DNA of 8,921 nucleotides from a virus. Its lineage: Duplodnaviria > Heunggongvirae > Uroviricota > Caudoviricetes. Below the pieces are notes generated by a model. It was not told the DNA's origin, did no database searches, and saw only the letters and a list, made by a program, of their open reading frames with translations. A program made the position numbers and the translations under genes. The DNA lies in IMG/VR virus record IMGVR_UViG_2671180636_000006. The stretch is one strand, 5' to 3'. Shown in pieces: positions 1 to 5,000 of this stretch (position 1 is the stretch's first letter; the number at the start of each line of letters is the position of its first letter).

Positions 1-33
<33 letters not shown>

Positions 34-67
34 GCGAGATTTGAGACGAAGGTTGTTATTTGCACTG

Positions 68-81
68 ACACAATATTGTGT
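68..81. repeat. 14-bp perfect palindrome ACACAATATTGTGT, candidate protein-binding site
   Basis: The sequence equals its own reverse complement and has an AT-rich centre; it lies 35 bp downstream of the tRNA 3' end. Function unknown. Confidence 0.4.
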
Positions 82-151
82 GGGAATGTCTGACTCCTTA
101 CCATCTCCTGTTCTGTGATGTTGTTTTGTTGCAGTTCCAGTGCTCTTTTTT

Positions 152-232
152 CAGCACCAGAATGGTGCATTGTCGGTCAGGTTACGTAGTGAACCTCTGG
201 CAGGGGACTGATAATGCATCATTCTGGTGTTG
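152..232 (+). other. Long imperfect inverted repeat, predicted ~27-bp RNA hairpin with an internal stem-loop; candidate structured RNA or regulatory element
   Basis: Arms 152-178 and 206-232 pair at all 27 positions if G-T is allowed. The 4 non-Watson-Crick positions are all G/T on the + strand (G-U in + strand RNA, C/A on the other strand). The loop contains a nested hairpin AGGTT (179-183) / AACCT (192-196). Confidence 0.45.
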
Positions 233-480
233 TAAATATCTCTTCGGACAACTTACAAAATATTCTAAGCAAACCCCGGGAACACACTCTTAACTGCCTT
301 GGCTGGCGGTTTTTTGTACAGCGCTCGGTATGTGTGAGCTGGAAATCAGATTTTGCATGGACTGGAATCATGCTGTTATTTAGGGGCGAAGAACTGGCTT
401 TTTCTTCCGCCTTCTCACCAGTAACGATTAGAAAAATAATGAAATGCCCCCCTCCGGGGAGGAGGACCGTAGAAAAAAGG

Positions 481-538
481 ACCCGCCAGCAAAAACATTG
501 GGGATGAACAGCTTTCGCTACTCAGATTGCTGGCGGGT
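481..538. repeat. 11-bp perfect inverted repeat (ACCCGCCAGCA / TGCTGGCGGGT) separated by 36 nt
   Basis: Arm 481-491 is the exact reverse complement of arm 528-538. GC-rich stem, no downstream T-run, so not a classical terminator. Confidence 0.4.
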
Positions 539-646
539 AAAGTTCCTCATGAATTAAGAATGCTACGCGATCTTTTTTAATGGAAATGAAAATTATTGTC
601 AATTAGTCGTGCGTGTTTTTTCATACAATATTGGTAAAGGTGATTC

Positions 647-682
647 AGGCCATCAGAGTTTTGCTGATGGCCTTTTTTCTTT
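647..682 (+). terminator. Rho-independent terminator immediately upstream of the holin gene
   Basis: 10-bp stem AGGCCATCAG (647-656) / CTGATGGCCT (664-673), 7-nt loop AGTTTTG, followed by TTTTTTCTTT (673-682). On the opposite strand the hairpin is not followed by a T-run, so it is + strand specific. Confidence 0.75.
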
Positions 683-713
683 CCGATAGCACAGGTCTGT
701 CGGGGGGCGGGAT

Positions 714-989
714 ATGTATCAGATGGAAAAAATATCAACAGGCATTGCCTACGGCACCTCCGCCGGCAGTGCCGGCTACTGGTTTTTGCAGTGGTTGGAT
801 CAGGTCAGTCCATCACAGTGGGCTGCGATTGGTGTGCTGGGAAGTCTGCTTCTGGGGCTTCTGACTTATCTGACGAATCTGTATTTCAAAATAAGAGAAG
901 ATAAGCGTAAGTGGATTTGCCCCTATATTTCTCGCCATCATTACGCAAGGCTGTTGCAGTTGCTATTGGTGGCGGGGCTGTTGCTATAG
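714..989 (+). CDS. S: Class II holin / pinholin, phage 21 S-like, with a C-terminal extension relative to the ~71-aa form as I recall it
   Basis: [69 protein letters not shown]... closely resembles the phage 21 S pinholin as recalled. Two TM segments, dual start Met1/Met4, purine-rich SD (GGGGGCGGGA) before ATG 714. Stop TAG 987-989. Confidence 0.85.
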
Positions 990-1426
990 CATCTGTGTTA
1001 ATCACTGGCCCAGGTGGTAACGATGGTCTGGAAGGTGTCAGCTACATACTATACAAAGATATCATTGGTGTATGGACTGTATGTCACGGACACACCGGAA
1101 AAGACATCATGCTCGGTAAAACGTATACCGAAGCAGAATGCAAAGCCCTCCTGAATAAAGACCTTGCCACTGTCGCCAGACAAATTAACCCGTACATCAA
1201 AGTCGATATACCGGAAACAACGCGCGGCGCTCTTTACTCGTTCGTTTACAACGTGGGCGCTGGCAATTTCAGAACATCGACGCTTCTTCGCAAAATAAAC
1301 CAGGGCGATATCAAAGGCGCATGTGACCAGCTACGTCGCTGGACATATGCTGGCGGTAAGCAATGGAAAGGGCTGATGACCCGTCGTGAGATTGAGCGTG
1401 AAGTCTGTTTGTGGGGGCAGCAATGA
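911..1426 (+). CDS. R: SAR endolysin (phage 21 R-like lysozyme, T4-lysozyme/GH24 type)
   Basis: Translation ...[78 protein letters not shown]...REVCLWGQQ matches phage 21 R / DLP12 RrrD as recalled: Gly/Ala-rich N-terminal signal-anchor-release TM, then an E...D...T catalytic region. The frame opens at GTG 911 directly after TAA 908-910 and has no in-frame ATG upstream of the conserved region, so the start is GTG 911 or TTG 917. Stop TGA 1424-1426. Confidence 0.85.
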
Positions 1427-1752
1427 GCAGAGTCACCGCGATTATCTCCGCTCTGGTTATCTGCATCATCGTCCGCCTGTCATGGGCTGTTAATCATTAC
1501 CGTGATAACGCCATTACCTACAAAGAGCAGCGCGACAAAAACGCAAGAGAACTGAAGCTGGCGAACGCAACCATTACTGACATGCAGCAGNATGCACTCG
1601 ATGCTAAATACACGAAGGAGTTAGCTGATGCGAAAGCTGAAAATGATGCTCTTCGGCGCAAGCTTGATAATGGTGGTCGGGTGCTCGTCAAAGGAAAATG
1701 CCCTGTGCCATCCTCAGCCGAAACCTCCAGCGCCTCCGGCATGGGCAATGAT
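1423..1752 (+). CDS. Rz: Rz i-spanin (inner-membrane spanin subunit), 3' end masked
   Basis: ATG 1423 overlaps the endolysin stop (ATGA). [81 protein letters not shown]... is strongly similar to lambda Rz as recalled: N-terminal TM then a coiled-coil region. Runs into the N mask at 1753; contains one ambiguous base at 1591. Confidence 0.85.
1628..1752 (+). CDS. Rz1: Rz1 o-spanin (outer-membrane lipoprotein) embedded in the +1 frame of Rz, 3' end masked
   Basis: ATG 1628 preceded by AAGGAG at 8-nt spacing. [41 protein letters not shown]... has a signal peptide with lipobox (VVGC) followed by a Pro-rich segment ending PPAWAM, like lambda Rz1. Lies entirely inside Rz in a different frame. Confidence 0.8.
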
Positions 1753-2744
1753 NNNNNNNNNNNNNNNNNNNNNNNNNNNNNNNNNNNNNNNNNNNNNNNN
1801 NNNNNNNNNNNNNNNNNNNNNNNNNNNNNNNNNNNNNNNNNNNNNNNNNNNNNNNNNNNNNNNNNNNNNNNNNNNNNNNNNNNNNNNNNNNNNNNNNNNN
1901 NNNNNNNNNNNNNNNNNNNNNNNNNNNNNNNNNNNNNNNNNNNNNNNNNNNNNNNNNNNNNNNNNNNNNNNNNNNNNNNNNNNNNNNNNNNNNNNNNNNN
2001 NNNNNNNNNNNNNNNNNNNNNNNNNNNNNNNNNNNNNNNNNNNNNNNNNNNNNNNNNNNNNNNNNNNNNNNNNNNNNNNNNNNNNNNNNNNNNNNNNNNN
2101 NNNNNNNNNNNNNNNNNNNNNNNNNNNNNNNNNNNNNNNNNNNNNNNNNNNNNNNNNNNNNNNNNNNNNNNNNNNNNNNNNNNNNNNNNNNNNNNNNNNN
2201 NNNNNNNNNNNNNNNNNNNNNNNNNNNNNNNNNNNNNNNNNNNNNNNNNNNNNNNNNNNNNNNNNNNNNNNNNNNNNNNNNNNTGAGNNNNNNNNNNNNN
2301 NNNNNNNNNNNNNNNNNNNNNNNNNNNNNNNNNNNNNNNNNNNNNNNNNNNNNNNNNNNNNNNNNNNNNNNNNNNNNNNNNNNNNNNNNNNNNNNNNNNN
2401 NNNNNNNNNNNNNNNNNNNNNNNNNNNNNNNNNNNNNNNNNNNNNNNNNNNNNNNNNNNNNNNNNNNNNNNNNNNNNNNNNNNNNNNNNNNNNNNNNNNN
2501 NNNNNNNNNNNNNNNNNNNNNNNNNNNNNNNNNNNNNNNNNNNNNNNNNNNNNNNNNNNNNNNNNNNNNNNNNNNNNNNNNNNNNNNNNNNNNNNNNNNN
2601 NNTTTAGGCTTAAACACCTTACATTTACAAGGTACTCCTGTGGGGGGCCCTGCCACGGAGCGTCGCAGGAGTGAGTGATGAGGAAGAATTAAAGCAACCT
2701 ATTGTGACAGGCAGCGATAACAGTAAATCACAGGAAGCATAATC

Positions 2745-3509
2745 ATGGCAAAACCGGACTGGGAGGCCATCGAATCGGCATACCGGGCCGGAGTCCTTAG
2801 CCTCCGTGATATAGGCGAGAAATACGGCGTTACAGAAGGGGCTATCAGGAAGAGGGCCAAAAAGCTTGGTTGGGCACGCAGTGGCGGTACGCAGGTTTGC
2901 AAAAATGGTACGCAAAAAAGGAAAGTGCGTACCAGCAGAAAGCCTGCCATTACTGGCCTTACACAAAAAAGTACGCAACTAAAAACAGAATCTACACCGG
3001 ATACGAAACCGATACGCGGAATGCGTACCGATCCCCCGACTAACCCATTCCAACCCGGTAACCAGCAGGCATTAAAACACGGTGGTTATGCCCGTCGCCT
3101 TCTGCTCAAAGATGAGGTGATAGAGGACGCTAAAGCGTTGACGCTCGAGGACGAATTATTTCGCCTTCGTGCTAACAACCTTGTCGCTGCAGAGAATATT
3201 GGTCGGTGGTTGGTGTCGCTGGAAGATGCTAATGGGGACCAGGAAAGGAAGATGCTGATTGAAAATATCAGCGCCGCCGAGAAAGCAATGATGCGCAATA
3301 CAGTTCGTATTGAGTCCATCGTTGGCACGCTTGCGACGGTAGGAAAAATATTTGCTGATACAGCCTACCGCAAGGCCGCCACTGATAAGGTGTCTCTGGA
3401 GGCTGATCGTCTTCGCCGTGATGCAGGTATTGATGATGGCAATGGAGAGCGTGACCTCAATGACTTCTACTCTGACATCCAAACCGACGCTGAATCCGGC
3501 TTTACGTAG
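2745..3509 (+). CDS. Terminase small subunit (N-terminal HTH DNA-binding type)
   Basis: Complete 254-aa ORF with SD AGGAAG 7 nt before the ATG. N-terminus MAKPDWEAIESAYRAGVLSLRDIGEKYGVTEGAIRKRAKKLGW is the helix-turn-helix signature recalled from terminase small subunits that precede PBSX-type large terminases in enterobacterial prophages. Position directly upstream of the large terminase. Stop TAG 3507-3509. Confidence 0.75.
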   Translation: MAKPDWEAIESAYRAGVLSLRDIGEKYGVTEGAIRKRAKKLGWARSGGTQVCKNGTQKRKVRTSRKPAITGLTQKSTQLKTESTPDTKPIRGMRTDPPTNPFQPGNQQALKHGGYARRLLLKDEVIEDAKALTLEDELFRLRANNLVAAENIGRWLVSLEDANGDQERKMLIENISAAEKAMMRNTVRIESIVGTLATVGKIFADTAYRKAATDKVSLEADRLRRDAGIDDGNGERDLNDFYSDIQTDAESGFT

Positions 3510-5000
3510 TTTCTGGACTATGCGGGCACGTAACAAAGTGCTTTATGGTGGTCGGTCATCGTCAAAATCATGGGATGCCGCTGGCATTGCCATATTTCTG
3601 TCGAATAAATACACCCTGCGTTTTTGTTGTGCCCGTCAGATCCAGAATAAAATCGAAGAGTCGGTGTATACCCTGCTCAAAATTCAGATAGACAGGTTTG
3701 GTCTGCGGCACCGTTTCCGTATTCTGAACAACAAAATCATTAACCGGGTTACTGGCTCGGAATTTGTTTTTTATGGATTANNNNNNNNNNNNNNNNNNNN
3801 NNNNNNNNNNNNNNNNNNNNNNNNNNNNNNNNNNNNNNNNNNNNNNNNNNNNNNNNNNNNNNNNNNNNNNNNNNNNNNNNNNNNNNNNNNNNNNNNNNNN
3901 NNNNNNNNNNNNNNNNNNNNNNNNNNNNNNNNNNNNNNNNNNNNNNNNNNNNNNNNNNNNNNNNNNNNNNNNNNNNNNNNNNNNNNNNNNNNNNNNNNNN
4001 NNNNNNNNNNNNNNNNNNNNNNNNNNNNNNNNNNNNNNNNNNNNNNNNNNNNNNNNNNNNNNNNNNNNNNNNNNNNNNNNNNNNNNTAAGGTTATCGACG
4101 CGGCGCGACGCCGTGATCCGGATGGTTTTAAACATGTGTATGNNNNNNNNNNNNNNNNNNNNNNNNNNNNNNNNNNNNNNNNNNNNNNNNNNNNNNNNNN
4201 NNNNNNNNNNNNNNNNNNNNNNNNNNNNNNNNNNNNNNNNNNNNNNNNNNNNNNNNNNNNNNNNNNNNNNNNNNNNNNNNNNNNNNNNNNNNNNNNNNNN
4301 NNNNNNNNNNNNNNNNNNNNNNNNNNNNNNNNNNNNNNNNNNNNNNNNNNNNNNNNNNNNNNNNNNNNNNNNNNNNNNNNNNNNNNNNNNNNNNNNNNNN
4401 NNNNNNNNNNNNNNNNNNNNNNNNNNNNNNNNNNNNNNNNNNNNNNNNNNNNNNNNNNNNNNNNNNNNNNNNNNNNNNNNNNNNNNNNNNNNNNNNNNNN
4501 NNNNNNNNNNNNNNNNNNNNNNNNNNNNNNNNNNNNNNNNNNNNNNNNNNNNNNNNNNNNNNNNNNNNNNNNNNNNNNNNNNNNNNNNNNNNNNNNNNNN
4601 NNNNNNNNNNNNNNNNNNNNNNNNNNNNNNNNNNNNNNNNNNNNNNNNNNNNNNNNNNNNNNNNNNNNNNNNNNNNNNNNNNNNNNNNNNNNNNNNNNNN
4701 NNNNNNNNNNNNNNNNNNNNNNNNNNNNNNNNGTTTAACGCCATTAACAACGGAGAACAGTATCCTGTGGATGAGCTGATCAGCATAGATTCTCGTTGTC
4801 CGTTGCTTGAAAAGCTGAAACTGGAACTGACAACACCTCATCGTGATTTCGACCGTAACGGACGTGTGATGGTCGAAAGTAAAAAAGACCTCGCAAAACG
4901 CGAGATACCGTCACCAAACGTTGCTGATGCATTCATTATGGCCTTCGCGCCAATCGATACATCGCTGGATATCTGGGAACAGCTGGGGAGACAGGCCTGA
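3460..5000 (+). CDS. Terminase large subunit (PBSX/Terminase_3-like ATPase-nuclease), interrupted by two N-masked runs; visible fragments are in three different frames
   Basis: N-terminal fragment MTSTLTSKPTLNPALRSFWTMRARNKVLYGGRSSSKSWDAAGIAIF... has a Walker-A-like motif (GGRSSSKS). Middle island 4088-4141 reads KVIDAARRRDPDGFKHVY. C-terminal fragment 4733-5000 ends ...NVADAFIMAFAPIDTSLDIWEQLGRQA with stop TGA 4998-5000. Start ATG 3460 (SD GGAGAG upstream) is tentative; ATG 3442 or 3520 are alternatives. Confidence 0.75.

Follow-up and report, generated by a model that had tools for sequence, protein, structure and literature searches.

A conserved plus-strand RNA hairpin behind the tRNA genes of lambdoid prophages

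A long hairpin located behind the tRNA genes in the late region of a lambdoid prophage is a plus-strand-specific RNA structure under selection, not a DNA palindrome, and is best explained as part of a structured, non-coding 3' trailer of the prophage tRNA operon, in which it is the best conserved helix. The window, that is the whole 8,921-nt stretch of DNA that was analysed, belongs to the Caudoviricetes record IMGVR_UViG_2671180636_000006 of IMG/VR, and positions given without another source refer to it. The stretch from Q to the lysis genes in the intensively studied lambdoid prophages of Escherichia coli is the seat of toxin genes and of small RNAs (StxS, Pas), and a conserved structured RNA tied to prophage tRNA arrays was not found described in the literature searched. 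Long processing-type hairpins in untranslated phage regions are familiar, and the present one joins them as part of a larger trailer RNA that is undescribed. The element is carried by a common laboratory strain, E. coli W (NC_017664, positions 1515281-1515387), which makes the question of its role directly testable.

A plus-strand RNA hairpin under selection

Read from the sequence, positions 152-178 pair with positions 206-232 of the plus strand over 27 consecutive pairs, four of which are G-U (G154/T230, G165/T219, G172/T212 and G175/T209, each with G opposite T on the plus strand). The first-pass annotation had described exactly this helix, with its four deviations all of one kind and a nested 5-bp hairpin at 179-183/192-196, and both helices are present. 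Beyond the core, a U151/U233 mismatch is followed by three A-U pairs, giving a stem of approximately 31 bp, and a repeat search placed the arms at 148-178/206-236 (Table 1). Folding of positions 140-245 as RNA, proposed in the same annotation for both strands, returned this hairpin at -48.0 kcal/mol for the plus strand (mean of 200 shuffles, -24.6 kcal/mol; z = -6.99; none of the shuffles as good) and a structure of -31.0 kcal/mol (z = -4.78) for the minus strand, with bulges where the G-U pairs become C/A.

Homologues of window 120-260 were found in 152 of 5,426 complete E. coli genomes, nine of them near-identical and 143 with 74-78% identity. The element was also found in two phage records and, by pattern scans of IMG/VR, in many more prophage contigs. 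From these sources, 141 sense-strand instances were extracted, corresponding to 57 distinct sequences. A gapped pattern scan of the GTDB species-representative genomes gave real matches only in E. coli and Shigella flexneri and chance matches in six other records; the pattern was strict, and the element may therefore be missed elsewhere. E. coli K-12, the strain of the published maps, is without the element. In a comparison with the most divergent class, represented by E. coli W (L008), alignment with the window is confined to the tRNA end (1-37) and to the hairpin (128-236), and since the flanks fail to align, the hairpin is selectively conserved.

Pairing statistics were calculated on an alignment of 55 distinct rows with a main stem of 31 pairs. 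In this alignment 91.8% of the stem cells are paired, as compared with 32-58% when the 3' partners were slid by 1-3 columns, and neither the paired fraction nor the covariation score was reached by any of 500 column shuffles. Changes on both sides were observed at eight pairs, the clearest being column pair 25/92 with A-U in 25, G-C in 23 and G-U in 3 sequences. The covariation analysis over homologues that the first-pass annotation had called for thus shows pairing to be kept. The apical hairpin behaves in the same way: its first pair (columns 44/64) is G-C in 32, A-U in 14 and U-A in 3 sequences, and in L007 the hairpin is GGGCU/AGCCC, with two pairs changed on both sides. RNAalifold independently gives the same main stem and apical hairpin. 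A covariance model built from the alignment scored the window at 73.7 bits on the plus strand and 42.3 bits on the minus strand, and it also detected the more diverged copy of L240, with 51 bits.

The strand of the structure follows from the kind of mismatch that was tolerated. G-U cells number 316 and A-C cells 22, with means of 5.7 and 0.4 per sequence, whereas a DNA palindrome would decay symmetrically, and the structure was therefore assigned to plus-strand RNA. The asymmetry that had been read as selection on RNA from the window by itself is thus borne out by the homologues, in the paired fraction, the two-sided changes, the RNAalifold structure and the covariance model alike. An inverted repeat acting as DNA, for example as the site of a dimeric protein, a recombination site or a cruciform, with RNA pairing merely incidental, could draw on the length of the arms and on the stem centre ATGCAT, which is a perfect DNA palindrome. 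Equal loss in both directions would be expected of it, however, and the two-sided changes preserve RNA pairing while the apical hairpin keeps its structure as its sequence changes, so that a DNA-level origin is strongly disfavoured and given next to no weight.

Conservation is unevenly distributed over the hairpin. Pairs that never or almost never vary are concentrated in the middle of the stem, at columns 28-36 (AUGGUGCAU paired with AUGCAUCAU), and most of the variation falls in its lower and upper thirds. The sequence of the unpaired CUGGCAGGG is kept across classes while the adjoining apical hairpin varies, and no partner or complement of CUGGCAGGG was found within the window.

The tRNA operon and the rest of its trailer

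The locus is the late region of a lambdoid prophage. Pfam matches in the window are to holin, lysozyme, Rz, Rz1, terminase, portal and DUF2213, and the prophage of E. coli VL40 (L003), which is 98.5% identical to window 1-1500, has the full tRNA array visible. Its order is a Q-like antiterminator gene (DUF1133), an ORF6N gene, tRNAs Ile-Arg-Thr-Gly, approximately 680 unannotated nucleotides, a class II holin gene, the lysozyme gene rrrD and an Rz-type lysis gene. ARAGORN located the end of a tRNA 113-132 nt ahead of the hairpin in 100 of 113 distinct contexts (Gly-UCC in 98, Glu-UUC in 2), and the arrays are of the types Thr-Gly, Ile2(CAU)-Arg-Thr-Gly, Ile2-Lys-Thr-Gly and others. Promoter scans placed a sigma-70-like site upstream of the first tRNA in several arrays, mostly about 10-70 nt away; in VL40 it reads TTTGCA-18-TATTAT and ends 10 nt before tRNA-Ile. 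On the 3' side of the hairpin, a terminator (ACCGCC-loop-GGCGG followed by T6-8) is found in 93 of the 100 tRNA contexts at a distance of either 53-80 nt ('short', the class to which the window belongs) or 140-167 nt ('long').

Table 1. Coordinates of the tRNA end, trailer helices and terminator-like sites in the window.
Feature	Position	Strand	Basis or remark
3' end of prophage tRNA-Gly(UCC), last gene of an Ile-Arg-Thr-Gly array	1-34	+	100% identity to annotated tRNA-Gly 3' ends; remainder of the array upstream of the window
Helix P1, 5' strand GCACUG; proposed long-range helix closing the spacer domain	62-67	+	pairs with 138-143; RNAalifold on 72 distinct spacers
Spacer hairpin P2, ACACA/UGUGU, loop AUAU	68-81	+	read from the sequence
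Spacer hairpin P3, CUGUGAU/GUUGCAG	113-134	+	RNAfold structure of 35-322
Helix P1, 3' strand CAGUGC; conserved motif, with the U run a few nt downstream	138-143	+	same prediction and homologues
5' arm of the long hairpin	148-178	+	reported core 152-178; U148-U150 extend it past the U151/U233 mismatch
Apical 5-bp hairpin AGGUU/AACCU, 8-nt loop	179-196 (179-183/192-196)	+	fold and homologues
Conserved unpaired CUGGCAGGG	197-205	+	nine bases on the 3' side, between apical hairpin and 3' arm
3' arm of the long hairpin	206-236 (core 206-232)	+	G/U-rich; the more conserved of the two arms
Intrinsic terminator-like site AACUGCC...GGCGGUU + U6; predicted end of the tRNA-operon trailer	292-318	+	terminator scan and equivalents in homologues
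Second terminator-like hairpin, strong, 10 pairs + T run	647-679	+	holin start (714) about 35 nt further on

Both terminator-like sites of the window (Table 1) sit between the hairpin and the start of the holin gene at 714, and because they separate the two, the hairpin was assigned to the 3' trailer of the tRNA operon. The first-pass annotation had placed it in a leader between the tRNA and the lysis genes; the location between tRNA-Gly and holin holds, but the notion of an uninterrupted lysis-gene leader does not, with the terminators at 292-318 and 647-679 intervening. The unit is therefore composed of a promoter-like site, tRNAs, a structured trailer and a terminator, embedded in the late operon 3' of the Q gene and 5' of the cargo and lysis genes, and the hairpin takes up the location of a 3'ETS-type RNA, between the last tRNA and the operon terminator. 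A terminator-like hairpin analogous to that at 647-679 also stands ahead of the holin gene in E. coli E2348/69.

The long hairpin itself does not have the make-up of an intrinsic terminator, in which a G+C-rich hairpin is directly followed by a U run. The U run at 146-151 precedes the stem and pairs with the AAA behind it, UAUCUC comes after the stem, and the sites listed by the terminator scan were 292-318 and 647-679, the long hairpin being absent. A promoter right upstream of the hairpin was considered and rejected as weak: in the conserved CTGACT-N18/19-TGTAAT (TGTGAT in the window) the second base of the -10 hexamer, a critical one, is G, and a properly spaced equivalent is lacking in the L008 class.

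Seven contexts with ample upstream sequence have no tRNA by the same search. Decayed or truncated tRNAs were recognized in three of them, and none at all in the other four, namely L160, L176, L223 and one of the two copies in L198. The promoter-like sequence TTGAAG-16-TATTAT is shared by L160, L176 and L223 with the tRNA arrays of L012 and L018, and all four wholly tRNA-less copies retain the terminator and a hairpin with compensatory changes. L198 carries two trailer modules in tandem on its minus strand, about 1 kb apart, with 3' arms starting at 4331 and 5334 on the reverse strand; one module stands behind tRNA-Thr and tRNA-Gly and the other is without a tRNA.

The spacer ahead of the hairpin also looks structured, as judged from predicted folds and their counterparts in homologues. 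The pairs of the proposed helix P1 are kept in all intact sequences, with a U-A pair replaced by C-G on both sides in L018 and L173 and several other changes that are wobble-compatible; support for P1 is modest, since most of its columns are invariant. At the position of P2, every class holds a hairpin of different sequence, such as GGCGUA...UACGU(G) in the L008 class, and P3 has its counterpart in CUGUAAU...AUUACAG or GAGGCC...GCCUC among the homologues. In the 'long' class (L008 1308-1476, L015, L017, L160 and others), hairpin and terminator are separated by a second structured domain, also conserved and about 100 nt in length, which is absent from the 'short' class of the window. The closing helix of this domain covaries (GAGGUGU...ACACCUC versus GAGAUGU...ACAUCUC), and inner hairpins are contained within it.

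Proposed function and competing explanations

Among the earlier candidates, which were a phage small RNA, a processing or termination signal for the upstream tRNA transcript and a part of an antitermination leader, the context favours a processing signal or a trailer RNA, and the strong terminator found 3' of the hairpin in nearly all tRNA contexts argues against an antitermination leader. Cleavage by host RNase III is regarded as the most likely function, because the helix has at least 20 uninterrupted base pairs and an invariant centre. On the basis of helix length and analogy, the hairpin may be such a cutting site with somewhat less than an even chance; the estimate was held there because CUGGCAGGG, the shape of the apical hairpin and the tRNA-less copies point to an RNA that is functional in its own right. 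The helix accommodated by RNase III is about 22 bp long, and at least one of the two positions that lie between the cuts is usually a G-C pair (PMC6212723). Set against the size of about 20-22 bp from the same source, pairing is unbroken over 20 bp in every class (alignment columns 24-43) and over 27 bp in the window. The pairs U-A, G-C and C-G (U166/A218, G167/C217 and C168/G216 in the window) are invariant in the middle of the helix; in the alignment, columns 33/84 and 34/83 hold invariant G-C and C-G pairs, central within the 20 bp.

In lysogens, a cut by RNase III would part the tRNA precursor from the distal RNA that the terminator protects, and would open the trailer to 3' exonucleases. 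Under read-through by Q-modified polymerase, the tRNA portion of the late transcript would be split from the downstream lysis-gene mRNA. Cleavage would further release a hairpin of about 50 nt together with a 3' fragment starting with the G/U-rich arm. If RNase III does cut here, the hairpin would show how tRNAs within a late transcript of tens of kilobases become uncoupled from the mRNA of the lysis genes. The trailers of E. coli tRNAs are normally removed by RNase E and exonucleases, so that an RNase III site would be unneeded for tRNA maturation. Counting against a plain RNase III site are the conserved unpaired CUGGCAGGG and the conserved apical structure, which it leaves unexplained, and the 3' arm, which is more conserved than pairing requires, although partner-tolerant G and U may account for the latter. 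The copies in L160, L176, L223 and L198, which have kept hairpin, promoter-like site and terminator without any tRNA, point to a role beyond tRNA processing.

Transcriptional control of the downstream terminator, either by an antitermination RNA like the put RNAs of HK022 or by an attenuator setting the flow into the cargo and lysis genes, would fit the location of the hairpin downstream of a promoter-like site and 53-167 nt before a conserved intrinsic terminator. In its favour is also a complementarity, read in the window, of the loop sequence GGCAG to the terminator 5' arm CUGCC. This complementarity is lost in homologues, however; L004 has the terminator arm UCGCC with the same loop motif, and pairing of GGCAG with either the terminator arm or the acceptor end of tRNA-Gly was rejected, since neither the homologues nor the tRNA-Glu contexts preserve it. 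Hairpin and terminator are spaced by either 53-80 or 140-167 nt, two distinct ranges, and the intervening sequences are unrelated; constitutive read-through into the holin and lysozyme genes would harm the lysogen. Furthermore, put RNAs are found near promoters and consist of two short stem-loops, whereas here a single stem of 31 bp stands behind tRNAs, at a distance from the promoter-like site of some 430 nt or more. Control of transcription is thus considered improbable, and control of translation still more so. For the latter, the purine-rich loop GGCAGGGG would serve as the Shine-Dalgarno sequence of AUG214, buried in the 3' arm, and both AUG214 and a purine-rich stretch 6-8 nt upstream of it are conserved in most copies. 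The open reading frame from ATG214 is 10-108 aa long in the homologues, with nothing in common beyond the stem-encoded MHHSGVV, and a variant with ATT for ATG occurs at 19 places; the first-pass view that the small open reading frames here are not protein-like is in keeping with both. ATG214 falls within the palindromic centre AUGCAU, so that pairing accounts for its conservation.

Of greater weight than either form of control, and the main rival of an RNase III site although somewhat less likely, is the explanation of the trailer as a trans-acting 3' external-spacer RNA freed by tRNA processing. Such an RNA would act as a sponge of a host small RNA or bind a protein, for example ProQ, Hfq or a phage factor, with the hairpin as its scaffold or stability element. 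Its multi-domain build (P1, P2, P3, the long hairpin, the additional 100-nt domain of the 'long' class and a U-rich terminator), the single-stranded and conserved CUGGCAGGG, and the tRNA-less copies with TTGAAG-16-TATTAT, hairpin and terminator retained all point in this direction. Precedents exist in the same prophage region, namely StxS, derived from PR' (PMC7547250), and the Pas RNAs beside holins (bioRxiv 10.64898/2026.05.13.724894). On the other hand, the segment from hairpin to terminator differs between the short and the long classes, which speaks against a universal seed near the terminator, and the window gave no complement to the conserved loop motif. Action in trans and cleavage by RNase III are compatible if RNase III matures such an RNA. 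If the trailer does act in trans, it would represent a new class of prophage RNA made in lysogens. As a more speculative proposal, with roughly one chance in a handful or slightly better, the trailers of E. coli and Shigella prophage tRNA operons may form an undescribed family of multi-domain RNAs of about 280-430 nt, with the hairpin as their core, that are made constitutively in lysogens and act in trans, by titration of RNase III or another protein, as a sponge of small RNAs or as a decoy against tRNA- or RNA-directed defence, and are not merely discarded.

Described RNAs and other features of the locus

The Rfam scan advocated in the first-pass annotation found no described family matching the hairpin. 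At gathering thresholds, the window and 10 homologous loci gave only tRNAs near the element, and a permissive scan against Rfam 15 gave only sub-threshold matches to microRNA precursors (33.6 bits against a threshold of 70), a generic signal of long hairpins. The arm sequences are absent from a full-text literature search.

Structured non-coding RNAs that are co-transcribed with phage tRNAs have an analogue in the stable RNAs C and D (species 1 and 2), which are encoded in the tRNA cluster of phage T4; T4 belongs to an unrelated phage group, and the likeness is one of analogy only. In E. coli, the glyW-cysT-leuZ tRNA operon has a trailer, 3'ETS-leuZ, which is a sponge of small RNAs, about 50 nt long, that acts via a single-stranded region. 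Like 3'ETS-leuZ, the present trailer is a segment between the last tRNA and an intrinsic terminator that could be released by tRNA processing, but it measures about 280-430 nt and is dominated by the 31-bp stem. The leuZ trailer appears as 3'ESTleuZ in the supplement of PMC8550237.

StxS (PMC7547250), AgvB/AsxR (PMC4104026) and PasA-D (PMC8550237; bioRxiv 10.64898/2026.05.13.724894) are likewise non-coding and situated between Q and the lysis genes of E. coli lambdoid prophages. StxS differs in its origin, PR'/tR', which is situated on the upstream side of the tRNAs. In EPEC, the Pas small RNAs adjoin holin genes of similar prophages (PMC8550237; bioRxiv 10.64898/2026.05.13.724894), and identity of the trailer with PasA, PasC or PasD was rejected. 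In a fuzzy search, the published fragments of PasA and PasD1 were found in E2348/69 (L236) and not in the window, and the E2348/69 loci with PasA, PasC and PasD2 are without the hairpin, giving no match to the covariance model. A separate feature of the window recalls PasA of EPEC E2348/69 in position, strand and a GCCAGCA...UGCUGGC stem, with no significant similarity by BLAST: at 473-538 on the minus strand, a perfect 12-bp inverted repeat (481-492/527-538) is followed by a U run, which looks like the intrinsic terminator of a minus-strand RNA about 200 nt upstream of the holin gene.

Processing hairpins of RNase III are represented by the sites in the lambda late leader (as indicated by the title of Daniels et al. 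1988, Virology 167:568, cited in PMC7547250), lambda sib, T7 R1.1 and the stems that flank 16S and 23S rRNA. The present hairpin, a putative site of this kind, resembles them in its long near-perfect stem of at least 20 bp, in its location in an untranslated part of a polycistronic phage transcript and in lying beside stable-RNA genes, where it would separate RNAs of different fates. It is unlike them in the conserved unpaired CUGGCAGGG and the structurally conserved apical hairpin. Homology to the lambda late leader was rejected, given that the covariance model finds nothing there and the similarity is limited to a 12-nt identity, CCAGTGCTCTTT (E = 2.4, not statistically significant), which falls at window 137-148. 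In lambda, a long imperfect hairpin comes directly after tR' (L324 479-572, corresponding to lambda 44778-44871), and since GUUGUGCUG can pair with either the upstream CUGCACAAC or the downstream CAGCACAAC, two mutually exclusive helices are possible.

A different conserved hairpin is found in L239 (693-765) and in about 25 other IMG/VR trailers, approximately 60 nt past the 3' end of tRNA-Gly. It is composed of UUAUGAAUGAUCGC, a loop of about 43 nt and GCGAUCAUUCAUAA, has the covarying variant UUUUGAAUGGGCGCUG...CAGCGCUCAUCCAAAA, and its loop ends in GGGCAGGC, recalling CUGGCAGGG. This second class (TTATGAATGATCGC...GCGATCATTCATAA, with GGGCAGGC, 60 nt after the same tRNA-Gly in other prophages) was rejected as a distant homologue, the covariance model giving no match. 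An attachment site of a satellite was likewise dismissed, as nothing relevant is contained in PMC10111431.

Several further features of the locus were recorded. At window 912-932, the 21 nt containing the holin stop and the lysozyme start (GCTGCGAGAGGTGAATAATGT in L003) are swapped for another 21 nt, of which the first 20 (TGGATTTGCCCCTATATTTC) equal the IS2 terminal repeat. Because of this replacement, the holin open reading frame extends to 989 and the lysozyme gene is without an ATG; the replacement could be an IS2 scar or an assembly artefact. Within window 1411-4089, an Rz-like open reading frame of 291 aa matches only profile positions 1-87 of 126, the match to Rz1 falls in an open reading frame of 348 aa, and the terminase and portal matches are partial, so the prophage of the window may be degraded or its sequence may contain frame errors. 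Upstream of the window equivalent in L003, positions 2701-2898, directly after the DUF1133 gene, match Rfam isrK (72 bits) and C4 antisense RNA (75 bits) with an a1/b1 target and are followed by the ORF6N gene. This is an antisense-controlled antirepressor module of the P1/Gifsy type, in the place where PR'/tR' was first guessed, and a hok/sok pair is located further upstream, at L003 354-678.
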